From: a bacterium
GTDB taxonomy: Bacteria; Patescibacteriota; Microgenomatia; Curtissbacterales; GWA2-41-24
DNA length: 64,000 bases
NCBI GenBank assembly: GCA_021813945.1
Contig: JAKAJD010000001.1
Coordinates: 560,412-624,411 of the forward strand
Direction: 5' to 3'
Below, in pieces: positions 2,948-52,386 of the stretch. A program made the translations under genes and the position numbers. Position 1 is the first letter of the stretch. Every line of letters begins with the position of its first letter. The notes below the pieces were generated by a model. That model was not told the origin of the DNA and made no database searches. It saw only the letters and a program-made list of their open reading frames with translations.

Positions 2948-3003
2948 CGCAAAGGCCAGGCCTTTACATTGACCATTCCTAAGCTAAGGCCTGGCCTTAA
3001 CAG
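2948..3003. repeat. Palindromic repeat (type 2): AAAGGCCAGGCCTTT ... TAAGGCCTGGCCTTAAC
   Basis: Between the mreB start and the upstream gene's 3' end. Confidence 0.6.
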
Positions 3004-3103
3004 GGTGTGTTGGTCCTGCCGCATTTTAGAATCGGCACTAAAAAAGGGCAAGGGGTAAATCGGGTTTTATTGACCTAAAGGGAAACAAACTACATCAAAC
3101 TCT

Positions 3104-3136
3104 AAATCCTAAATTCTAAACTCTAATTTAGGATTT
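3104..3136 (-). terminator. Candidate terminator hairpin just downstream of the 1276-aa surface protein gene. It is a 12-bp perfect inverted repeat, AAATCCTAAATT / AATTTAGGATTT, with a 9-nt loop.
   Basis: Seen in sequence; immediately 3' of the stop codon at 3158 on the minus strand; AT-rich downstream. Confidence 0.4.
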
Positions 3137-3157
3137 CGAATTTCCGTAAGCAGCGGC

Positions 3158-6100
3158 TTACGGTGCCACTTCCTGCCAGGAGACTGCCGGGGAACCAATA
3201 AGCTGTGCTACCGCAGGAACCAGGTATTTTGCCTGAAAAACAACGTAATCGGACGGATTCAAGCTGTTTTTGCAAGCATCACCGCAAAGCGGGTCATCTG
3301 TCAAAAAGCTTCCTAAATCAAAAGCCTTAGCGTATATGCCACCATTTACAGTCAGATAATAATTGCCCGTCGGCGAAGCCCATTTCCTGCCTTTTCCATT
3401 TGTATTGTCATAATCATGGACCGTGCCTCCGGCAATGTAAACCCCGTCTGCCTGAGTGACATTTGTATTAAATGTTACGTCTCCTTTGACAACAAATACT
3501 ATGGTCGAATTACTACCTGTTGCAAAACCGAAATTTGAAGAAACAGTCAAATTTCCATCCACAAAAACGACCCAGTTGCCGGCCGTAGATATATTGAGAC
3601 CGCCAACGTCGGCATTTGAAGTGCACTGTACATATGACCAGGAATTAGACGCCCATACAGCTACCTGGACGGGATTTACCGTACAACTTGAAGGATTCGT
3701 CGCCTTATACCTGAACCTGCTTGCAAAATAGTTGTAAACTCCCCCTCCATCTGCCGGGAAAAGCGCTTTTGAATAATTATTAAGTTCCCATCTACCGCTT
3801 ACACTTGAATCAAGCGGATTACCAGCCAAAACGGCGGTTGACTGGGAGTTTACAGGTACACTTGTATTTGAAACCTGAATCTTGCCCCGACCCCCCACAT
3901 CTCCTCCTACTGTATTAAACCAGGTCTTTGCCGCCACAACATACAATAACTGGAAACTGTTATTACTCCAGTTTTTGTCATTGTTTGGCGAACAGTTGGG
4001 AAGGACATAAAAATTGGCCACATAAGAACCGGGCGTATTACTTACTGTAAATGAAAATGTAAAATCCTGATAGCTTGTTGGATTTAAATCATCGGTGTTG
4101 CGTAAAAGGGGTGTGACCGTTATCGCCTTTGAAGCCGAAGGTGTCTGTGGAACCGGCGGTGATGCACTACAATTCGGCAATGTAGTGCTTGTGGGCCAAA
4201 ATCCAACGGAACCCGGACCGGTAAAATCAACCTCCGCCTGTGACGTATTAAAAACACGCACTGTCAGGTTTGCAGTCGCTCCGGGATCATAAACCTGTTG
4301 ATTCCCAAGTGGGCTGTTTGCAACTTTAAGGTCAAACATACAAGTTGGCGTCGTGAAAGAAATACCGGGCGGTGTCGTTGTTGAGGTCGGGTAAATCTTA
4401 GCGCTTTGCTGAGTTAACGAATATGCTGTCACTCGCCAGTAGTAGGTAACTCCCTTCGCTGGAACAAGCGGCGTGTCGCCGATAGTAGAAACAGTCGCAC
4501 TTGCTACCGCTCCGCCTCCGCCTCCGCCGCTAAACGAAATTGAGGGTGCAGAAGTGTAATTCTTGCCACCATATGTTATGGCTATGCTTGTAACTTTTCC
4601 GGCCGAAATAGAAGCAACTGCCTGGGCGCCAACTCCCCCGCCGCCGGAGATAATAACTGCCGGCGCCGAAGTATAACCTGTACCGCCATTGGTAACATTA
4701 ATCGACGTAACATCCTTGCCCGTATAGGCATCTCCAAAATCTAATGCGCTTGTTGCACTCCAAGTGAAATTAACAGTTTTTGGAGGCGTGTGATCAGAAT
4801 AGGAAACAGCTTTAACTGCCCATTGGGAAGTTTGCCCTGCTAACGAAGCTACAGTCGAAGAGTCACCGGTGAAAGCATCGTGCGAAACATCCAACCAGAA
4901 ACCTGTTTCGGTAGTAGCATTGTTTTGCCAGCTGAATGACATAGTTGGAGTACCCCCGGTACAAGCAGTCGTTACGTTTAGATTAGTAGGGTTCGCCGGC
5001 GGCGGCGTACATGTTGCCGTAGTGATCGGATATAAATTAGATTCGTTCGGGTCAAAAGTGCCTCCGCTACTATGCACTTTCCAGTTATGGGAAACACCAG
5101 GGTCAGTCATGGTAACATCCCAAGACCGGTCAGTCCCTCCTAAGCTCGAAGGTATTCCGGTACTGGTAACGTTCGTTCCCGAACCCATAACAGCCGTACC
5201 GTCACGAAGTATCGAATAAGCCGTACCTCCCGAATTGGAAGTCCACCGCAAATGCACCTTTGGGTGTAACGCGTCGACGCAATCGGAAAAACCCGAAAGT
5301 GTAATAACAACCGGTTCCGGGGAAGGTGTCGGACCTTGCGTCGGGCAAGCAGTACAAGAACCACTAGTAAATGAGCTAGCAGTTGAATAAACGCCAACCT
5401 GGCAAGCGGGTGTGCAAAAAGTTATATCGTAGCTGGCACCGCTGTTTAGATTCGCAAAAGGGGTTTTGCTATCACAGCTGATAGACCCGTCATTACAAAA
5501 TGGATCATTGGAAGTTGAAGTCACCTTTCGGTTGTCACTCTGCGAACCTGCGCTTCCGTAACTATAACCGGTAAGATGAAGCTGGACTTCATACTGCCAT
5601 GTCCAATTAAGTTTCACTACGCCTGTGGAGGTATAGATTGTACCCCCATCACTCACCCAGCTACGTATGGCAACAAAGGTATTGCCAGATCCATCAGCCG
5701 GTTTGACTTCCCAATAAATGTATTCTCCAGCACAAAACAATTGATTTCCTGAATCTAAAGCGGCTGTGAACCCAGCTATATCACGCGCACCGCAAGGTCC
5801 TGTTCCGTCAGTCCACATATGCCACCAAGCGCTCGGCCTTGCGTAAGAATATGTCTTCGTCGGGGCGGTGCAACCGGCCGGACAAGGCTTTCCAACTTGC
5901 GGTGTCGCTACTGGAGTTGCGATTGGCAGTATTGCGTTTGGCGGACAGGTCGGGGTAGTAAACCTTCCTGTCACAGAAGGATACCAGTTGCCGCTAATGT
6001 AGTTATTAACCCGCCAGTAAAAAGTCACACCTTGCGGATACATTGGATATCCAGGAGGTGGAGCATTCAAACTGGAAGCGCCAGTCACAGGATAGTTACT

Positions 6101-7855: not shown

Positions 7856-8608
7856 TTACTGATCGTTTAAGTAGTAGATACGCGCCGCATTCGTCCACAG
7901 AGAAGGTGTAACCTTATCTGGCGCTTTTGCTCTAATTTCGTCAAAAATCTGCTTGTGGACAGGTTTCCAGTTCGCGTTTGCAGTCTTGAAATCCGGATTT
8001 CCGGTAGCTTCATATAAAACTTTTGATATGTTAGCAACCTCATTACAAGCTGTTAAGAAAACACTAAAGTAATCTCCTTCGGTTGGTGGAACCTGACGAG
8101 GTTCTTCCGGCGGCCCGAATGTTTCGCCCCACCTGTTTGGATCGCAAAGAGCCATCATTTGGCTCAAATATTTAGGGTCTAGCATCTCGTTGTGGGCATT
8201 TGAATCGTGGGCCTTGTTCAAATCAGCAGGCGTTAAGTGAGATTGCTCAAGAGCAGTAGTAATAGTTTGCGCCACTGATGTCTTTGCCTGAGTTAGCTGT
8301 TCTGGTGTAAGTTGCGCTTCAACTGTTGCTGTCGGCGCTTCAGAAACTACTGTAGGTGAAGCTTCACCAATAACAGTAACACCCTCCGGCCCAGTAGATG
8401 GCTGAGCTTTCGCTCCTGCTATTGCCTGACTTGTCTGGTTTGGGGTCAGATCGGATTTCTCTCCTCTTCCGGAACCACCACATGCGGCGATCAATGCCGC
8501 AGATCCTGCCAAAATAACGCCTCCAAAAACACCAACTCGTGCTGTTCTCTGTGTTTTTTTAGGAATTTCGCTTGAAACGTCTCTAGATCTATCTCTATCT
8601 TTGTCCAT
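7856..8608 (-). CDS. Putative lipoprotein (lipobox LIAAC), hypothetical
   Basis: ORF; signal plus lipobox ...ILAGSAALIAACGGSG; Thr/Ala-rich linker. Confidence 0.5.
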   Translation of the reverse strand: MDKDRDRSRDVSSEIPKKTQRTARVGVFGGVILAGSAALIAACGGSGRGEKSDLTPNQTSQAIAGAKAQPSTGPEGVTVIGEASPTVVSEAPTATVEAQLTPEQLTQAKTSVAQTITTALEQSHLTPADLNKAHDSNAHNEMLDPKYLSQMMALCDPNRWGETFGPPEEPRQVPPTEGDYFSVFLTACNEVANISKVLYEATGNPDFKTANANWKPVHKQIFDEIRAKAPDKVTPSLWTNAARIYYLNDQ

Positions 8609-8704
8609 TTATTGCTTACTTGCGCAGTAATAATACCACGCTTTAGCCTCAAAAACAATTATACTACTATAAGTTAGAGTTGTCAATTACTATGAGTCTA
8701 ACTT

Positions 8705-8760
8705 ATATCAGAGGAGCGCCATTGGCATGACTTAAAGGTGCCAAGGCGACCTGCTGATAT
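8705..8760. repeat. 56-nt structured element (copy of 46065..46120) in the 5' leader of the lipoprotein gene 7856..8608
   Basis: Near-identical sequence; substitutions fall in predicted loop and bulge positions. Confidence 0.6.
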
Positions 8761-8784: not shown

Positions 8785-8834
8785 CAAGGTCAGGCCTTAG
8801 GCTCAGAATCATCCAACAAAGGCCAGACCTTTTA
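8785..8834. repeat. Palindromic repeat (type 1)
   Basis: AAGGTCAGGCCTT ... AAGGCCAGACCTT. Confidence 0.6.
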
Positions 8835-10905: not shown

Positions 10906-10986
10906 TCAGGCCTGCCCTTAAATCCTGGAGAAAGGTCAGGCCTTAACCTAAGCGAATCCCCCGAAAAAGGCCTGACCTTAACCTAA
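10906..10986. repeat. Palindromic repeat half-site at 10906-10922 plus a full type-1 copy at 10930-10986
   Basis: AGGCCTGCCCTTAA; AAAGGTCAGGCCTTAACC ... AAGGCCTGACCTTAACC. Confidence 0.6.
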
Positions 10987-17629: not shown

Positions 17630-17702
17630 CGGGGTGTGGCGCAGTTGGTAGCGCGCGTCGTTCGGGACGGCGAGGCCGTCGGTTCGAATCCGACCACCCC
17701 GA
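17630..17702 (+). tRNA. tRNA-Pro (anticodon CGG)
   Basis: Manual cloverleaf: acceptor CGGGGTG/CACCCCG with C1:G72 (typical of bacterial tRNA-Pro), D-arm GCGC/GCGC, anticodon loop TTCGGGA, T-arm GTCGG-TTCGAAT-CCGAC. Confidence 0.85.
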
Positions 17703-17731
17703 CTAGGGTTCACTTTTTGGCAAAGCCAAAA

Positions 17732-17765
17732 ATATCAGAGGAGTCCCGAAGGGAAGCTGCTGATA
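17732..17765 (+). repeat. Mini-variant of the ATATCAGAGGAG...CTGCTGATAT structured element, sitting just 3' of tRNA-Pro
   Basis: Shares both termini with the 8705 and 46065 elements; the core is replaced by TCCCGAAGGGAAG. Confidence 0.4.
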
Positions 17766-17836
17766 TTCCCAGCACCCCGACACAAAACAAAAACCCCCAA
17801 AATGGGGGCTTTTGAATTTAAAATCCTGTCTAGAAA

Positions 17837-18673
17837 TTATTTCCCTGCGTTGACGTTTGCTTCAACGAAACTTACACACGAACCCTGGTTCTTAAATACC
17901 GGATTGTTGAAATTCTGCCAACCGCCCTTCTTGCACTCGTCCTTATTAGTCGGAGTCGTCAAAACGATTGTGTTGTTTTCAAAATCGTAGGTCTTGGTAT
18001 TTGTCCCGTCAAATCCAAGCGTCGCATTATCAACATAGCCGACAAGTACGTCACTTATAGCATTTGGTCCAACCTGGAAACGTACTCCACCAGTTCCATC
18101 TGCTCTAGTCCTTACGGAGATTGACACAACATTACCCGGCAGACAATTCGCCAAATACTGTGCAAGTGTCCCAGGTCCGAAGGCACTACACGGGAGTGTT
18201 GAACCCCATTTTCCGTTCAGCGCATCCCAAGACTGCCATACACCTGCTACCGGAGCCTGTAATTGATCCCGAGGGTCAAAGGTAAGCTCATCGGGGATTG
18301 TTGTAGTTGTCGTATTTATGTTTACATCAACTATCAGCTTCGGATAAGAAGCATTAGAAGCTCCTACTGGAACATATGTTGCGTAGCTTGCAGCCGCGTT
18401 GGCAAAATTAGTCGTTGATTGTCCGTCATAGGCTGTCGTGTGAATTGCTGAGAAGTTCGATCCGTTTGAGCCTGAAGCCAGTTCCACACTTCCTGCACCC
18501 GCTGGAGGGGTTCCCGGCCCAGTCACAAATTGGCCAAGACCGTCTGCCGCATTTGTCTGGAAATCCCATGTACCTTTATTGGAAGGTGAAATAACTGTCG
18601 CAGCCAAAACGGGGCTGGCCAAAAGGGTGCTAACTGCCATAAACGAGGTAATTCCCAATATTAACTTTTTCAA
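17837..18673 (-). CDS. Secreted hypothetical protein (signal peptide)
   Basis: MKKLILGITSFMAVSTLLASPVLAATV signal; Thr/Asn-rich. Confidence 0.5.
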   Translation of the reverse strand: MKKLILGITSFMAVSTLLASPVLAATVISPSNKGTWDFQTNAADGLGQFVTGPGTPPAGAGSVELASGSNGSNFSAIHTTAYDGQSTTNFANAAASYATYVPVGASNASYPKLIVDVNINTTTTTIPDELTFDPRDQLQAPVAGVWQSWDALNGKWGSTLPCSAFGPGTLAQYLANCLPGNVVSISVRTRADGTGGVRFQVGPNAISDVLVGYVDNATLGFDGTNTKTYDFENNTIVLTTPTNKDECKKGGWQNFNNPVFKNQGSCVSFVEANVNAGK

Positions 18674-21085: not shown

Positions 21086-21163
21086 AAAAGGCCAGGCCTT
21101 TTTCCAGATTCGCCCAAGTTAAGGCCTGGCCTTAACCCAAGCAGCGTTAGACGTTAGACAACC
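21086..21163. repeat. Palindromic repeat (type 2) with an extended tail, CGTTAGACGTTAGAC, shared with the 41473 copy
   Basis: AAAAGGCCAGGCCTTTTT ... TTAAGGCCTGGCCTTAACCC-AAGCAGCGTTAGACGTTAGAC. Confidence 0.6.
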
Positions 21164-41393: not shown

Positions 41394-41552
41394 ACAAAGG
41401 TCAGGCCTTAACGACCGCCATTTCCAAGCAGAAGACCTGACCTTGGGACAAAAGATGGGTCATCACTCAAGAAAAAGGGCAGGCCTTTCTCTTGCGTGTC
41501 ATAGGTTAAGGCCTGCCCTTAACCCTTGCGTTAGTCGTTAGACGTTAGACGT
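41394..41552. repeat. Two palindromic repeats, type 1 at 41394-41447 and type 2 with a GTTAGACGTTAGAC tail at 41473-41552
   Basis: The spacer GCCATTTCCAAG is shared with the copy at 88-147; the tail is shared with 21141-21163. Confidence 0.6.
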
Positions 41553-44671: not shown

Positions 44672-44740
44672 AAGGGCAGGCCTTTGTGCGGCAATAATCT
44701 TAGGTTAAGGCCTGCCCTTAACCCTGGTCTCTGGGTACTG
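44672..44740. repeat. Palindromic repeat (type 2) with a shared tail CCTGGTCTCTGG
   Basis: AAAGGGCAGGCCTTTG ... TTAAGGCCTGCCCTTAACCCTGGTCTCTGGGTACTG. Confidence 0.6.
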
Positions 44741-46045: not shown

Positions 46046-46064
46046 TTTTGAGTCCCTCGAAAAA

Positions 46065-46120
46065 ATATCCGAGGAGCGCCTTTGGCATGACTGAAAGGTG
46101 CCAAGGCGACCTGCTGATAT
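46065..46120. repeat. 56-nt structured element, ATATCCGAGGAGCGCCTTTGGCATGACTGAAAGGTGCCAAGGCGACCTGCTGATAT, in the 5' leader of the M16 peptidase gene
   Basis: 53 of 56 nt identical to 8705..8760 while the flanks are unrelated; nested imperfect hairpin (TTGGCA/TGCCAA, GCGCC/GGCGAC, outer ATATCAG/CTGATAT). Confidence 0.6.
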
Positions 46121-47025: not shown

Positions 47026-50000
47026 CTACTCTTCGGGTGCCACCAGTCCCAGAACCGGAAACACAATGCTCGTCTTTGGCTGGTAATAGGTCCCTCCGGA
47101 AACGTTATAGACAACATACGGGAAGACCAAACTTACAGCCGGCACGACCCCGCCGAAAAACACCGCTTCGTCGGAATAATCACTTGGCAAAACCGCGCTT
47201 CCAGAATACGCATTATCTCCCGGAAAAATCTTGGAAATCGCGCTTTGATATTGGGAACTGCTGCTGTAGGAATTCTCCTGATTCAAATATATAAACGAAG
47301 GTGAAATCGCATCCTCCATCAAATACGAATAGACATAATTGTTGTGGTTTTTGCCGGTAGGAGTTTGGTATTTGCTGAATATATTGTTGCCGGAAATTAC
47401 AACGGCGCCGGATTTTCCCATTTCAACAGAAGATACCGTATCGCCTGTTGAAAGGTCCTTAAACGAACGTTTTAGGTTTATGTCGATAACCTTTGCCTCA
47501 CTTGCTATGCTTTCGTTTTTGAGGCTCAAAGATTTTTTAACAGAGTTAAAAGAAAACGCCTTATTTCCTGAATCTGGGGGAACTTGCTTTTGGTCGTAGT
47601 TAGTCTCCAAAATCGTAGTGTAAACAGGTATATCGCCGCTCGTTTTTACTTCAACGGAAACTTTGCCGTCTTTATAATTTTTCGCAAGAATTGTTTTACC
47701 AAACTGGTTATACTCTTTATCCTGCTTCGCCTCGTAGACTGTTTTTCCATTAACCGCCACGCTTATTTTGGGCTCTTCTATATACAAATTATTTCTTTGA
47801 GCATACATCAAACCGGCAAGCAGGCTAAACAGCGACTGAGAATACCCGGCTTGACTAAACGATAAGCCCTTTATCGCCCGATTGGCATCCTCGTTTGTGC
47901 CTTTTTCGATCATCGCAAGTGCCGGCAAAACAGAAGCAAACTGAGTATCACCGTCCCAAACGTACCTGTCGTCTGCACTATTAAGAGCCAGATTACGCAA
48001 TGTCGAAAGGGCCGCCTTATCACCATTCATAGCCCTTATTGCCACGGATTCGGGCGTATTTTTATAAATTGGATCACTCACTTCATCGCCCAAAACCCAT
48101 TGCCTTGCAATTTTTTCTTCCGGCGTGCCGGACCCTACTTGTACCTCGAAATTCTGCGCCAAACCTTGCGGAAGATTAGCAATATTCAAATTACTAATCG
48201 GTTTATTGGCCTTGCCATTAAGAGATTTTACGTACTGCTTCGTCGCTTCCACGACAGAAGGCATGTTGCTAACCTCATCAATCATATGGAGCCCTGCAGC
48301 CTGGTCCAAACCCGCAGCAAGCCAAAGATTAACAACTTGCTGCGATTCCTGACTATAATTGGCATTGACATTCCAATGATCTCCGGACCGAATTTCCAAA
48401 AGATGAGAAACAGTTTCCAGAAAAGAATTTCTTAATTTTGCATACTGGTAAGACGTTGGCGACACTAAACCGTCGCGGGTCATAGCCATTGCATTAGAAT
48501 ACACGTATAAATTTCGCCCCACCTCGCTCGAATCATAACCAAAAGTTGGATAGTTGTTATGAAAAAGAGCACTAACTACATTTGGTGCAACCCACATATC
48601 CATTTTGTTGAAATCTAAATCGGGGTAACTCGCTTCATATGAAATCTTTTTTGAACCCTCAAAAGATTGCCAAAAAGAATTAATGTTTCCTTGCGGCAAA
48701 ATTGGCCGTTTGGAAGAAACGGAATCAAGTGTATTTCCCTGCTTGTCTTTGGCTTCAAATGTAAAAGACAGATCCTTGCTTTGCCGTCCGGCATCTAGAG
48801 GAAATTTGACCTCTCCAAAACCACTGCTTGCCACCTTAAGCGGCTGACTTTTGGAAAACCCAATCTCTTTTATTGTGAGCGAAACGTCTGCCTCAACATC
48901 TTGCTGCGTTGAATTCTGGACAAGTGCGGAAACAACCGGCTGATCAGCTTGATAGTAAAAATTGGAAACAACCGGAATAATGTTGATGCCCTTTTGCGAA
49001 ATAAACTCGCCGGTAGTCTGGCCGAATTGGGAATTTTTGGTGTTGGAAAATACCTGTGCTGTAAATGTCGTTAAATTATCCGGAAGCTTAAATGTTACAG
49101 TCGCCCGCCCGCTGGCATCAGTTTGTAGGTGGGGATTCCAATAAGCGGTGTCGGCAAAATTTTCTCTCGGGCCCATTCCCTTTTCGTTGTGAACATAAAA
49201 CCCATTGGCAAAAAATGTGTGGTACTCAAAGGTCGTTAAGTTGTAAACGACAAACTGCCCGACATGCTTCTCTATCGATATAATCTTGACAGAATTACCG
49301 TTTTCATCCAAAAGTGTATCACCAATTTCGGCCTCCCCGGCTTCATGCCAAGCATTGTTTAAAAATATGCGGTGAACCCAGGTCACATTAAGAGTGCCGT
49401 TAATCGTTAAATAGTCGGAAACTGCATGCCGGAAAGTCTTGGAAACCGTATCGGGAACGAGCGAAGATAAACGCTCGGAAGAACGCGTCTTTATCTTGTC
49501 TCCAATTCTAATATCTTCAATATTGCGTGCTGTGCCGTCTTCCATCAAAATTTTCGTCCCGGCTAAAAAGCAGCCTCCGCCCCCACCGCCCATGAAGGCT
49601 TCTACACCCGTAGTAGAACTAAAACTCGAAACGGCAGAGGTTGGCGTGTAATTGTAAAAATTGTCATAAATATTTTCGTTGAACTGCCCGATTTGCAAAA
49701 TCGAAGCATCGATAACCGAAAGCGAATTGTCGGCAGACACCGGATTTCCAGCCTCATCCTGGGTTGTAATCGCTGCCGAAACCGAATCTCCAGGTTTATA
49801 AATCTGCTTATCAAAAGCGATTTTGGTCGTTAATTTGCGACTCCCTTTGTCAACTAAAAGATTTATGTGGTTCGAAATAACCTGGCCGGCGTTAACGGTA
49901 AACACATCTACCCCAATTCCTCGCCCAAAACTCTCTACAATCTCAATTGGTAAATTCCAACTGCCGCTTCCCAAGTTATTTTTCGAAAGCGAAACGATGT

Positions 50001-52386
50001 TTGAAGAAGTTCCGCTGTTTTGCGTAATAACCACTATTGCATCATTGACCCCAAAAGTTGCCGAAACACCAATATTGGCTGTTTCGCCGACTTTATATAA
50101 GTTTTTTGAGGAAGTTAAAGTTATTGCGTCTTGTGGCTTGTTATAGGTGTATTGCTGCACTTCTCCTACATAAACCTGCGCCCGGCCCGTTACCGTATTT
50201 CCCCTAGAATCACCCGCTTGCGCAGCAACTTCATAGCTTCCTTTGCCAAGATTAGCAAAGGCAAATGAAGCAGTTCCGTCTGCACCGGAAACGGCGTTCT
50301 GGCTGGCAATCAGTTGCTTATCGCTGTAACTTACAACCTTATAAAGGGAAATCACCAAAGGTTTTGCCGCTACTACCTTTCTTGGAGTGTTGTGGTCCAA
50401 AACCGCTATATTGCCGCTTATTCCCTTTTCTGTATCGCCGCTTAAATTATCAACAAAAAGCGCAAATTCACCTCTGTGAATAAGCTTTGCTATTTTGCCA
50501 AATGAAGGGGTTGCGCCAATATTGGGTGTCACCTCAAGCGTTGCTATCTGGCTTAGCTCAAATTTGTCGGCAAGCTTAGTTGAAAATGTGATCTGTGCTG
50601 TCCCTTTTTCGTCAAATTTCCCATTTCCCGTTATAAGCTCTTGGCCTGCACCGTAATAACCGCTTACAACTCCGCCAACATCCTCGGCCGTTCTGTCTTT
50701 TATTTCTGTAAAATCCGTCAAAAGGACCCTGTAGGTGAATTCGATATTGGAAAGCGGTTGGCCAAAATTAGTCTTGGCAGTGACATTAACATGCGAGTCG
50801 TCACCGCTCACATACTCTTTTTCCAAAGCTGTTGCCGAAATGTCCATATCGGGCTTTCTGTAAGCCTGAACCGACAAGGGCAGCGAATCGATTTGCTGAT
50901 AATCTCCTTTATCATTTTTTACAGAAAGAATTATCTGCGGATAATTCCCCTCAACCATCGAGGGCAAATCTATGTCGGCATAAACGGTGCCGTTTTCGTC
51001 TGCCTCCAAGGCTGTGTAATTATCTTGGTCTTGCAAATTGTAATCGAGCTGAAGTTTGGCAAAGAAAGCTCCCTTGGCAACGCTAAAATCACCATTTTCC
51101 CTCTTTCTTAAAACTGCCTTATAGTGAACTTTATCTCCGGCCCGATAAACCGGCCTGTCAGAATAAGAAAAGACCTGATAATTTGCTCGGCCATATTGTG
51201 CATAATAGTAAACCTTCGTAAAAGTGACCGCTATGTCGCCATTGGAATGGGTTATCACAAAGTCCACGGCATCCTCACCATGCGCGCTTTTGGCAATTCC
51301 ATCTGCGCCCGTGGTAACCTTATCGACCAAAACCGGTGGCCCTTTAACCTTATACAATTCTGCTTCGACTCCGCTTATACTTTTGCCGGTATTTTGCTCA
51401 GACGCCCAAACGTAGGTGTTGTTTGCATCGTTAAACACCTGATTGATGTGCCCAGATGCAACCACGAACAAATCTTCACTCCAGCTATCGTTTTCTAGTT
51501 TTACGTAATATATGCCGGGCTTGGGAAAGTTATCTGCAGGTAGACTTAGGTTGTACGAATTAGCTCCACTACTTTGCTTTATAACACGCTGCATTTGCTT
51601 CATTGCCAAACTTGCCGCATCCTCAAAATAATAAAGGGAATTTTTGCCTCCCTTGTAGCTAAAATATTCAATCAGTTGCTTTTCATTTGCTTGGCCTATG
51701 CTTACATTTACCGACGTTCCAATATAGGAATTCATGCTATTTTCCCCGCCGCTGGAATAGCTATTAAACGAAACCTCAACAGGTTTGGCAGAATCTGTGG
51801 CAATCAACTTCTTGTTTGTTTGTAGTGTAAAATCCGGATTTTGCTTTGTCCTGAAGGCAACTGTAATATCTTCCGGCAATTTCTGTTTATCGGTAGAATA
51901 GAAACTTTTATCAATAGTTATCGTATAAACCGAGTTGTAGGAAAAGTTGGCCGGCAAACCGTCTGATTTTGTTTTGTTGGATGAAAAATAAACGACTTGG
52001 CCATTTTTTTCTAAATGCCATGATCCGGAAACTTCGGGGGTCAAATGGAAATAATTGCCAAGATTTGCTTCGGTTACACCGATCGGTTTGGAAAAAACAA
52101 AGGTCGGCTGCCCTACAACCGCAAATGAATCGCTTTGGTCTTCAGGTGAACTTTCCTTGAGTTCGAATTTTTGGGCTAGGGTCTTATGGCTTTTTTTCGC
52201 CAATCTGCTTTGGGCAAACCATAAACCGCCTCCCAAAAGGCCCAAAAACACCAATATTAAAACTAACAGTTTAATGTGCTTTCGAATTTTAGAAAAAAGC
52301 CTGGAAATTTTACTTTTCGACTGGGGCACCTCCACCGCCGGTCCGGAAATCGGCGGGGGCGGATCAACAGGCAGGCTGGGGTCCAT
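47026..52386 (-). CDS. Membrane-anchored alpha-2-macroglobulin-like giant protein (1786 aa) with an embedded Hint (intein-like/BIL) domain at the bait-region position and no thioester motif
   Basis: N-terminal TM; MG-like repeats; RENFADTAYWNPHLQTDASGRATVTFKLPDNLTTF matches the A2M FPETWLW/VPDSITTW hallmark; the poly-Gly plus CFLAGTKILMEDG ... FYVHN module lies immediately before it. Confidence 0.55.
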   Translation of the reverse strand: MDPSLPVDPPPPISGPAVEVPQSKSKISRLFSKIRKHIKLLVLILVFLGLLGGGLWFAQSRLAKKSHKTLAQKFELKESSPEDQSDSFAVVGQPTFVFSKPIGVTEANLGNYFHLTPEVSGSWHLEKNGQVVYFSSNKTKSDGLPANFSYNSVYTITIDKSFYSTDKQKLPEDITVAFRTKQNPDFTLQTNKKLIATDSAKPVEVSFNSYSSGGENSMNSYIGTSVNVSIGQANEKQLIEYFSYKGGKNSLYYFEDAASLAMKQMQRVIKQSSGANSYNLSLPADNFPKPGIYYVKLENDSWSEDLFVVASGHINQVFNDANNTYVWASEQNTGKSISGVEAELYKVKGPPVLVDKVTTGADGIAKSAHGEDAVDFVITHSNGDIAVTFTKVYYYAQYGRANYQVFSYSDRPVYRAGDKVHYKAVLRKRENGDFSVAKGAFFAKLQLDYNLQDQDNYTALEADENGTVYADIDLPSMVEGNYPQIILSVKNDKGDYQQIDSLPLSVQAYRKPDMDISATALEKEYVSGDDSHVNVTAKTNFGQPLSNIEFTYRVLLTDFTEIKDRTAEDVGGVVSGYYGAGQELITGNGKFDEKGTAQITFSTKLADKFELSQIATLEVTPNIGATPSFGKIAKLIHRGEFALFVDNLSGDTEKGISGNIAVLDHNTPRKVVAAKPLVISLYKVVSYSDKQLIASQNAVSGADGTASFAFANLGKGSYEVAAQAGDSRGNTVTGRAQVYVGEVQQYTYNKPQDAITLTSSKNLYKVGETANIGVSATFGVNDAIVVITQNSGTSSNIVSLSKNNLGSGSWNLPIEIVESFGRGIGVDVFTVNAGQVISNHINLLVDKGSRKLTTKIAFDKQIYKPGDSVSAAITTQDEAGNPVSADNSLSVIDASILQIGQFNENIYDNFYNYTPTSAVSSFSSTTGVEAFMGGGGGGCFLAGTKILMEDGTARNIEDIRIGDKIKTRSSERLSSLVPDTVSKTFRHAVSDYLTINGTLNVTWVHRIFLNNAWHEAGEAEIGDTLLDENGNSVKIISIEKHVGQFVVYNLTTFEYHTFFANGFYVHNEKGMGPRENFADTAYWNPHLQTDASGRATVTFKLPDNLTTFTAQVFSNTKNSQFGQTTGEFISQKGINIIPVVSNFYYQADQPVVSALVQNSTQQDVEADVSLTIKEIGFSKSQPLKVASSGFGEVKFPLDAGRQSKDLSFTFEAKDKQGNTLDSVSSKRPILPQGNINSFWQSFEGSKKISYEASYPDLDFNKMDMWVAPNVVSALFHNNYPTFGYDSSEVGRNLYVYSNAMAMTRDGLVSPTSYQYAKLRNSFLETVSHLLEIRSGDHWNVNANYSQESQQVVNLWLAAGLDQAAGLHMIDEVSNMPSVVEATKQYVKSLNGKANKPISNLNIANLPQGLAQNFEVQVGSGTPEEKIARQWVLGDEVSDPIYKNTPESVAIRAMNGDKAALSTLRNLALNSADDRYVWDGDTQFASVLPALAMIEKGTNEDANRAIKGLSFSQAGYSQSLFSLLAGLMYAQRNNLYIEEPKISVAVNGKTVYEAKQDKEYNQFGKTILAKNYKDGKVSVEVKTSGDIPVYTTILETNYDQKQVPPDSGNKAFSFNSVKKSLSLKNESIASEAKVIDINLKRSFKDLSTGDTVSSVEMGKSGAVVISGNNIFSKYQTPTGKNHNNYVYSYLMEDAISPSFIYLNQENSYSSSSQYQSAISKIFPGDNAYSGSAVLPSDYSDEAVFFGGVVPAVSLVFPYVVYNVSGGTYYQPKTSIVFPVLGLVAPEE
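49186..49572 (-). other. Hint domain (mini-intein-like, about 129 aa) running from Cys939 (GGGGGG-CFLAGTKIL) to His-Asn1067 (FEYHTFFANGFYVHN). The +1 residue is Glu, so canonical splicing is not possible and the domain is BIL-like.
   Basis: Intein block A (C-F-x-x-G-T-x-I-L) and block G (V-Y-N-L-T ... H-N) recognised by eye; no homing-endonuclease domain. Confidence 0.6.

Follow-up and report, generated by a model that had tools for sequence, protein, structure and literature searches.

The 64,000-nt stretch analyzed here (positions 560,412 to 624,411 of contig JAKAJD010000001.1, assembly GCA_021813945.1, from a bacterium of the Curtissbacterales; "the window" hereafter means this whole stretch) contains two near-identical copies of a 56-nt hairpin-forming element beside unrelated minus-strand genes, together with a shortened version behind a tRNA-Pro gene. 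The question raised by this locus is whether the element acts as RNA in the leaders of those genes or is a DNA repeat dispersed among them; the sequence-only reading that preceded this work had allowed for either a small mobile structured element or a cis-regulatory RNA motif. We incline, with modest confidence, to the view that it belongs to an apparently undescribed family of small dispersed palindromic DNA repeats in Microgenomates-type bacteria of the candidate phyla radiation (CPR), resembling either repetitive extragenic palindromic (REP) sequences and bacterial interspersed mosaic elements (BIMEs) or miniature inverted-repeat transposable elements (MITEs).

Both 56-nt copies were found where they had been reported and are identical at 53 of 56 positions; a repeat search of the window likewise recovers them as a two-copy family at 95% identity. 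They differ at element positions 6, 17, and 29. The A-to-C change at position 6 of copy 2 breaks a pair of the outer stem, and the other two substitutions fall in a bulge and in the apical loop, in agreement with the original description of two of the three as unpaired. Copy 3, a 35-nt mini-version, keeps ATATCAGAGGAG and CTGCTGATAT on either side of a short core, TCCCGAAGGGAAG; its presence, its retained termini, and its short core had been described correctly, but its end lies one base further on, at 17766. Each copy folds into a nested hairpin of −26.5 to −29.8 kcal/mol (z −5.1 to −7.1), with none of 200 shuffled sequences as stable, which bears out the nested imperfect hairpin first proposed. 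The nesting of the stems stands as well, but AGG/CCT, which had been counted into the outer stem, is better read as part of a conserved 5×5 internal loop, because its third "pair" uses a position that can be any base across the family. A covariance model built from 56-nt relatives and run on the whole window with filters off gave exactly three copies, all on the plus strand; beyond these, only their own reverse strands scored better than E = 1, and chance is thus ruled out. The copies and the parts of copy 2 (P1 to P3 denote the stems) are as follows.

8705 to 8760, plus strand: element copy 1, 56 nt; 86.2 bits, E 2e-23.
46065 to 46120, plus strand: element copy 2, 56 nt; 79.4 bits, E 2.5e-21; between the Metallophos stop codon (46123) and the M16 peptidase ATG (46045).
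17732 to 17766, plus strand: element copy 3, 35 nt; foot and internal loop as in the others, core UCCC-GAA-GGGA; 39.6 bits, E 3e-9.
46065 to 46071, plus strand: copy 2, 5' arm of P1, ATATCCG against the consensus ATATCAG; the C at 46070 forms a C·T mismatch with 46115.
46072 to 46076, plus strand: copy 2, 5' half of the internal loop, AGGAG, Shine-Dalgarno-like; invariant in the family, but required by the retrieval pattern.
46077 to 46108, plus strand: copy 2, variable part (P2, bulge, P3, and apical loop); 10 of 10 pairs are changed on both sides in the family.
46077 to 46080 with 46105 to 46108: copy 2, P2, CGCC/GGCG, with the bulge at 46081.
46082 to 46087 with 46099 to 46104: copy 2, P3, TTGGCA/TGCCAA, with the apical loop TGACTGAAAGG at 46088 to 46098.
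46109 to 46113, plus strand: copy 2, 3' half of the internal loop, A-N-CTG, here ACCTG.
46114 to 46120, plus strand: copy 2, 3' arm of P1, CTGATAT.

Relatives of the element were retrieved by scanning one genome per species for the pattern ATATCMGAGGAG-N8-38-CTGCTGATAT, with exact termini required. The scan yielded 102 loci (designated by L numbers below), 98 of which lie in ~32 metagenome-assembled genomes (MAGs) of Curtissbacteria, Daviesbacteria, or "Patescibacteria group"; the remaining four (L018, L037, L081, and L099) are chance matches inside genes of unrelated bacteria, about the number expected by chance. Among these loci the covariance model gives 113 hits, with only ~2 degenerate copies, and in total the architecture occurs ~110 times in the ~32 MAGs of Curtissbacteria, Daviesbacteria, and related Patescibacteria. 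The covariance-model search proposed with the sequence-only reading has thus returned, besides the three window copies, relatives with covarying stems in other CPR genomes. The copies are intergenic, with 1 to 10 exact-terminus copies per MAG. No copy was present in the more distant M16 loci (421 kb) or in syntenic DNA of Curtissbacteria (69 kb); the density is therefore low, and three copies in the 64-kb window are a local excess. Several TPA metagenome bins titled "uncultured Gammaproteobacteria bacterium" (L001, L002, L008, L011, L012, and others; CAYMGH, CAYMIE, CAZLVB, CAZBKB, and CAYTEJ) carry CPR-type genes, and this label is evidently wrong because their flanks are 76 to 89% identical to Curtissbacteria contigs.

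The architecture consists of an invariant base and an exchangeable tip. The foot, P1, has 7 bp (ATATCAG/CTGATAT), with its pairs invariant in 105 to 106 of 106 distinct copies, and is joined to an invariant asymmetric 5×5 internal loop in which AGGAG lies opposite A-N-CUG, N being any base. Since the retrieval pattern required exact termini, this conservation of the foot is partly an ascertainment effect and is inflated. Above the loop stand the covarying 4-bp P2, usually CGCC/GGCG, then usually a one-base bulge, and an apical hairpin of very variable length, with the whole element measuring 33 to 76 nt. Recurring apical modules are ...TTGGCATGACTGAAAGGTGCCAA..., ...TTGAAACGAAGTTTCAA..., ...CCCGCACTGCGGG..., ...CTGAGCGAAGTCGAAG... 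(with tandem G·A mismatches), ...GCGAGGACTTTAGTCTCGC..., and a bare CGCGAAGCG. The ends form imperfect terminal inverted repeats, ATATCAGAGG versus ATATCAGCAGG, with a 1-nt indel. When the 113 hits are aligned by the model, and thus fitted to the structure, 97.5% of stem cells are paired and all 10 P2/P3 pairs are changed on both sides, while sliding the partner by 1 to 3 columns as a register control lowers pairing to 28 to 56%. P2 (with variants including CGCC/GGCG, CAAC/GTTG, CCGC/GCGG, and CTTC/GAAG) is anchored by invariant flanks, and its covariation is therefore independent of the alignment.

Comparison of loci upholds the small mobile structured element of the sequence-only reading: the family is dispersed, has sharp boundaries, is present or absent at given junctions, and includes near-identical copies in unrelated flanks. 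L038 and L093, from different genomes, share identical 47-mers, and their similarity stops exactly at the boundaries T/ATATCAG and CTGATAT/A. L051 and L053 carry a module exclusive to one genome in two copies that differ by one mismatch, on one contig and in unrelated flanks; window copies 1 and 2 are the same kind of near-identical pair. Two operon genes abut in L071 where L039 has a ~140-nt block that includes the element, L015 lacks a copy that L063 has, and at another shared site (L015, 6544 to 6582) a decayed copy, ATACCAGAGAAG..., was found. At eight or more orthologous sites the position and orientation of the element are kept between two species and the apical modules differ; examples are L014/L071 (downstream of tuf), L094/L101, L040/L096, L012/L029, L015/L093, L053/L085, and L072/L082. 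We infer from these same-site differences that copies have traded modules, through copy-choice or gene conversion over their identical 16-nt arms, or else that insertions have recurred at hot spots. The base just before the element (−1) is T in 76% of copies and the base just after it (+1) is A in 68%, which fits a TA or AT target duplication and is not separable from the palindromic ends.

Two further observations concern the surroundings of these sites. In L063 (CAYMGH010000051.1, ~558 to 597) the element lies between convergent genes, with ~45 to 70 nt of flank (ACTGACCAGATCTAGTATCAACTCG...GTTTTAAT) present on each side at ~75% identity; the same flank occurs once, without an element, in L015 (7110 to 7440); apparently the insertion in L063 was accompanied by a duplication of the gene end. 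The spacers around element sites are also full of lineage-specific short word repeats, such as ATTAG, TCAGA/TCGGA, GTCAGT, and CAGTAA (L103, 3960 to 4000; L107, 9889 to 10000; L112, upstream of 628; flanks of L039, L044, L050, L084, and L013), and cannot be aligned even between 93%-identical neighbors.

Many elements are composite. A second hairpin form, class 2 (ATATCAG-CC-stem-loop-Y-CTGATAT), directly abuts the element described above, class 1, and does so on its 5' side in 22 of 23 cases, the junction reading CTGATATATCAG. Class-2 loops are of the TTC type (GAA on the opposite strand) and class-1 loops of the GAA type, so the two hairpins are of opposite polarity, as are REPs in BIMEs and REPINs. 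At many other loci this 5' side is taken by an AT-stemmed mini-hairpin (TTTTGAG..CGAAAA), as it is next to copy 2 (46046 to 46064), and the mini-hairpin accompanies the element into otherwise unrelated flanks (L036/L047). The two strands of the element are not equivalent. With DNA parameters the AGGAG strand is more stable than its complement in 90 of 101 elements (p 4e-13), compared with 55 of 101 only with RNA parameters, and of these 101 elements 57 have closed GNA triloops (C-GAA-G and T-GTA-A) on the AGGAG strand, compared with 16 that have them on the other. In DNA the stability of C(GNA)G triloops is exceptional, and in RNA it is lower. Strand stability and triloops thus point, weakly, to a hairpin of single-stranded DNA.

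Taken as a DNA repeat, the family would have been spread and homogenized at the DNA level. A DNA enzyme or a binding protein, acting in trans, may recognize the invariant foot and loop; it would work on the AGGAG strand extruded as a single-stranded hairpin, in the way that HUH enzymes do on REPs and on the ends of IS200/IS605 insertion sequences (ISs), and the apical modules may have been swapped between copies by copy-choice or gene conversion across the 16-nt arms. Effects on neighboring genes would then be incidental, a transcribed element only adding a stable stem-loop to the RNA; copy 2, in the Metallophos-M16 junction, and copy 3, in the tRNA-Pro trailer, are probably transcribed. A REP/BIME- or MITE-like repeat is the best-supported reading, the element behaving as those families do: an extragenic hairpin in both orientations, mosaic pairs, turnover, and homogenization.

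Several results weigh against it. For a REP or MITE, 1 to 10 exact-terminus copies per MAG is a low number. No recurrent gene was found beside the copies, whether among 665 flanking open reading frames (ORFs) or, by Pfam, among the 148 nearest ones, and the 25 most frequent Pfam families listed near copies include no transposase or integrase. In 750 kb of loci there were no solo 5' termini that would mark a longer autonomous element or parent IS, and a tblastn search with an IS200 TnpA query found no Y1 transposase in 1.25 Mb. The sites compared include no clean pair of empty and filled sites with a definable target-site duplication; the duplication is undefinable because the ends are palindromic and the whole spacer differs at empty sites. 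In 66 of 97 loci (66:31) the C-rich, gene-antisense strand is the one that carries AGGAG, which is not the bias expected of HUH transposition on the lagging-strand template, and in 8-kb pieces this GC-skew strand bias is confounded with gene orientation. Moreover, apparent covariation in DNA palindromes can arise without selection, by template switching, and identical 56-mers across species, together with a perfect foot in two candidate phyla, could reflect purifying selection for a host function.

Two gene associations were considered and set aside. Genes for "23S rRNA intervening sequence protein"/bAvd-like four-helix-bundle proteins (PF05635) form the largest ORF cluster, in 9 of 98 CPR loci (e.g., L042, 5769 to 6206; L017, 3951 to 4307; L007, 6423 to 6779). 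Two of these genes are no more than ~210 nt from an element, and the rest lie at distances of kilobases; their frequency is, by a rough estimate, about that expected of CPR genomes. Likewise, 15 of 108 copies lie within 200 nt of a tRNA gene, on either side of it, an enrichment that by a rough estimate is at most ~2-fold.

The alternative that the window itself suggests is that the lipoprotein and M16 peptidase genes have the element in their 5' leaders as an attenuator, a riboswitch-like element, or a translational operator. Features near the three copies are listed here.

46046 to 46064: AT-stemmed mini-hairpin TTTT-GAGTCCCTCG-AAAAA, between copy 2 and the M16 start codon.
8658 to 8686, minus strand: sigma-70-type promoter TTGACA-17-TATAAT, 12 of 12 positions matching, between copy 1 and ORF 7856 to 8608.
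8786 to 8831: a different, more abundant palindromic repeat, a neighbor of copy 1, with the inverted 13-mers AAGGTCAGGCCTT ... AAGGCCAGACCTT.
17630 to 17703, plus strand: tRNA-Pro(CGG), 28 nt upstream of copy 3.
17788 to 17814: bidirectional intrinsic terminator, a 12-bp GC-rich stem with A/T tracts, between copy 3 and the convergent ORF 17837 to 18673.

A leader role would suit the stable, covarying hairpin, the Shine-Dalgarno-like AGGAG, the position of copy 2 (the M16 ATG is 19 nt away, the stop codon of the upstream ORF 2 nt), and the ~14 of 46 copies that end 5 to 15 nt before a same-strand start codon. However, transcripts of the two window genes, which lie on the minus strand, would carry the complement, CUCCU, and not AGGAG. 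The sequence-only reading placed both copies 20 to 60 nt from a start codon, yet copy 1 is 96 nt from the ATG (8608) of the minus-strand ORF 7856 to 8608, and the promoter lies between them, which puts copy 1 upstream of the likely transcription start. Copy 3 sits between tRNA-Pro and a canonical bidirectional terminator. Copy 2 lies in the junction of a conserved gene pair, Metallophos followed by M16 peptidase, and the window M16 peptidase has hundreds of homologs at 70 to 93% identity, the named ones mostly labelled Curtissbacteria. The element occurs at this junction in 2 of 13 lineages, the window and L050, and is absent from 11 of 13: in the closest relative (L103/L104, 93% amino acid identity) the spacer is 41 nt long and unrelated, in L105, L106, and L107 it measures 19, 13, and 112 nt, and the six relatives L111 to L116 (70 to 77% identity) also lack it there. 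L050, a more distant member of the Curtissbacteria (~72% nucleotide identity), has the element in the same orientation with a different apical module. The ORF beside copy 1 has homologs of at most 44% identity, too distant for its junction to be compared.

The wider family argues in the same direction. Flanking genes are in all arrangements (33 loci −−, 21 ++, 22 −+, and 6 +−), and the orientation to transcription is thus not fixed. Copies adjoin at least 80 unrelated housekeeping contexts: the 665 flanking ORFs yield hardly any orthologous clusters, no adjacent context is common to more than 3 genomes, and the 148 nearest ORFs match 164 Pfam families, none of them in more than two members. 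The neighbors are ordinary housekeeping genes such as tuf, efp, lepA, prfA, pth, rplJ, gyrA, and glycosyltransferase genes. If selection acted on RNA from one strand, G·U would be expected to be far better tolerated than A·C; the stem mismatches, however, comprise 18 of the G·U type and 19 of the A·C type. At the gathering score Rfam 15 recognizes only two tRNAs in the window, and even at E ≤ 10 it has no match on the element. A gene-specific leader or attenuator is thus essentially refuted, and we regard a cis-regulatory RNA of these genes, one of the options of the sequence-only reading, as highly improbable.

The strongest competitor of the DNA repeat view is a generic hairpin maintained by the host. 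A CPR protein, such as an endoribonuclease, a protector of mRNA 3' ends, an operon insulator, or a nucleoid protein, would bind or cleave the element at its foot and loop; selection would keep the element at a few sites per genome, and the apical stem would only need to be stable. It would explain why foot and loop are invariant and the modules variable even at orthologous sites with position and orientation kept, as well as the low copy number with few degenerate copies, the many copies beside tRNAs and highly expressed translation genes (tuf, efp, lepA, prfA, pth, and rplJ), the excess of divergent (22) over convergent (6) spacers, and the conserved tandem G·A mismatches of module d. It fits less well with the occurrence of both orientations to transcription, the equality of G·U and A·C, and the copies outside likely transcripts, such as copy 1, upstream of its promoter, and those of L014/L071, between the tuf terminator and the next −35 box. 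Junction occupancy is also sporadic, as at Metallophos-M16, the contexts are nearly all lineage-specific, and the conservation of the foot is inflated by the search pattern. We therefore consider such a host-maintained hairpin unlikely, though deserving of serious attention. Still less probable is a portable transcription signal, as in Correia elements, in which the hairpin would terminate or insulate upstream transcription and the TGATAT end with a flanking AAT would serve as an extended −10 region (TGnTATAAT) for the next gene or tRNA. Several flanks do contain a perfect TGATATAAT, followed 5 to 9 nt on by an ATG that lacks a Shine-Dalgarno sequence (L078, L069, and L043) or ~20 nt on by a tRNA (L045 and L059). 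Strong −35 boxes often lie 0 to 20 nt from an end (L033, L071, L014, and window copy 1), and a two-tRNA operon in L003 has one copy on each side. Against this, the sixth-position T of the putative −10 region is no more frequent than background (34%), real promoters lie apart from the element, and the A-rich 3' flank has no U-tract. The terminator scan calls none at elements though canonical ones are nearby; the one at 17788 to 17814 shows that this organism uses ordinary terminators and that the element is not one of them. Individual copies may nevertheless act as promoters or terminators, a role without statistical support.

In a more far-reaching reading, doubtful as it must be considered at present, the element could be the substrate of a CPR-specific protein that reads the foot and the purine-rich asymmetric loop on one strand of the extruded hairpin, belonging either to a new type of single-stranded DNA transposition or recombination system that has no linked transposase and swaps apical "cassettes" or to a small regulon of structured sites across Curtissbacteria and Daviesbacteria. 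If true, this would be a new class of structured motif, outside Rfam, in genomes thought to be streamlined and repeat-poor.

If the family is a set of dispersed DNA repeats, its relation to known ones needs to be defined, and it fits none of the known classes fully: it has no GTAG head, and the loci searched yielded no RAYT gene, parent IS, or definable target duplication. The REP, BIME, and REPIN sequences of proteobacteria, associated with REP-associated tyrosine transposases (RAYTs), share with the element that they are small, imperfect, intergenic palindromes in either orientation with unrelated neighbors, stems kept by paired changes, and apparent concerted evolution within genomes; their mosaic clusters of opposite-polarity hairpins are paralleled by the 22 loci in which class 2 stands next to class 1. 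However, they begin with GTAG, whereas 105 of 106 distinct copies of the element have the foot ATATCAG, and they number hundreds of copies, against 1 to 10 of the element per ~1-Mb genome. The element further departs from them in its conserved asymmetric loop, its modular apical part (33 to 76 nt overall), and the occurrence of the same sequence across candidate phyla, with no RAYT/Y1 gene found near any copy. MITEs such as the Correia elements of Neisseria also have imperfect terminal inverted repeats (ATATCAG(C)AGG in the element), sharp boundaries at T/A-rich sites, presence or absence at junctions, ends that can make −10-like hexamers, and a hairpin in any RNA that covers them. Unlike these, the element is much shorter and, instead of deriving from an IS by deletion, consists entirely of a hairpin whose cores are interchangeable; it has no demonstrable target duplication, and no parent IS with the same ends was found.

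Among single-stranded DNA substrates, integron attC sites resemble the element as folded structures with a conserved foot, an unpaired center, an asymmetry that marks the strand, and a variable terminal structure, and some copies of the element immediately follow a stop codon. The attC assignment was rejected because the ends differ, the element having no RYYYAAC/GTTRRRY core sites, and the copies are dispersed in both orientations, without cassette arrays and with no integrase among their neighbors. The subterminal hairpins of IS200/IS605 and their derivatives, the palindrome-associated transposable elements (PATEs), are likewise strand-asymmetric DNA hairpins with conserved foot bases and serve as single-stranded substrates of HUH-type enzymes. 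The element differs in being one hairpin and not two different ends, in having no TnpA or TnpB gene nearby, and in a strand bias opposite to the lagging-strand-template rule.

Other known families could be set aside. The pattern was absent from 2.9 million viral contigs, and the searchable literature contains neither a description of the sequence nor a report that links REP/RAYT or MITEs with CPR bacteria. For the internal loop, we judge that the consensus does not fit a K-turn, a loop E, or a tetraloop-receptor. The protelomerase site telRL, which we take to read TATCAGCACACAA..., has ~8 nt in common with the minus-strand end only and requires a fixed center; this likeness is presumably due to chance. 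A PyrR site, considered for the resemblance to CAGAGAGG, has no Rfam match here. TIGR-Tas arrays were considered since they are found in CPR bacteria and phages and are excluded by architecture: they are tandem, with 5 to 15 units, alternating 8- to 12-nt edge and loop repeats, 9-nt spacers, and an adjacent Nop-domain gene (PMC12045711), while the element occurs as single or double hairpins, forms no arrays, and has self-complementary "spacers."

CPR/Patescibacteria genomes are ~1 Mb in size, and our literature search found no description of REP-like repeats in them; this window alone carries at least three families of intergenic palindromes. The near base-for-base sharing between species and two candidate phyla, the invariant foot, and the exchangeable tips point to a trans-acting factor and to recombination between dispersed copies. 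The family supplies a covariance model and a diagnostic sequence for Curtissbacteria-type genomes and offers a defined substrate with which to seek a partner protein by phyletic profiling. Hairpins of this family should not be annotated as leaders or riboswitches.

A second palindrome in the window is far more abundant. It consists of 13-nt arms, AAGGNCWGNCCTT, in inverted pairs ~33 to 35 nt apart (e.g., at 89 to 135, 8786 to 8831, 10932 to 10979, 21088 to 21133, 41475 to 41520, and 44672 to 44719). The arms covary (TCAGG/CCTGA, GCAGG/CCTGC, and ACAGG/CCTGT) and occur 33 times in 64 kb compared with 0.03 expected; one pair lies 26 nt from copy 1.

In L070 (JAUSJC010000004.1, ~2990 to 3290, minus strand), ~190 nt stand between a tRNA-like 5' half, GGATCCGTAGTTTAACGGTAAAACGGGACTCTTAAAT, and the 3' half that matches it, GGTCTTGTCGATGGTTCGACTCCATCCGGATCCACA; this stretch holds a complete tRNA-Ile(UAU) bracketed by the inverted repeat AAGTGGCAAGTG/CACTTGCCCTTAT as well as a copy of the element. 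Either disruption of a tRNA gene or an unusual insertion resembling an intron is conceivable; ARAGORN, run with its intron search, does not call the split tRNA.

Two other features of the window were also noted. ORF 47026 to 52386 (minus strand, 1,786 amino acids) encodes an alpha-2-macroglobulin-like protein with MG2, A2M_BRD, and A2M domains, and Hint/intein-type matches (PT-HINT, Hom_end_hint, and Vint) fall at residues ~938 to 1067, between the bait-region and A2M domains. The motif GTAGTATAA(T/A) is the apparent −10 region at 8658 to 8686 (minus strand) and recurs within 90 nt upstream of two further ORF starts (52386 and 60021); it is found once within a perfect TTGACA-17-TATAAT promoter and once only 3 nt ahead of an ATG, the latter suggesting a leaderless mRNA.

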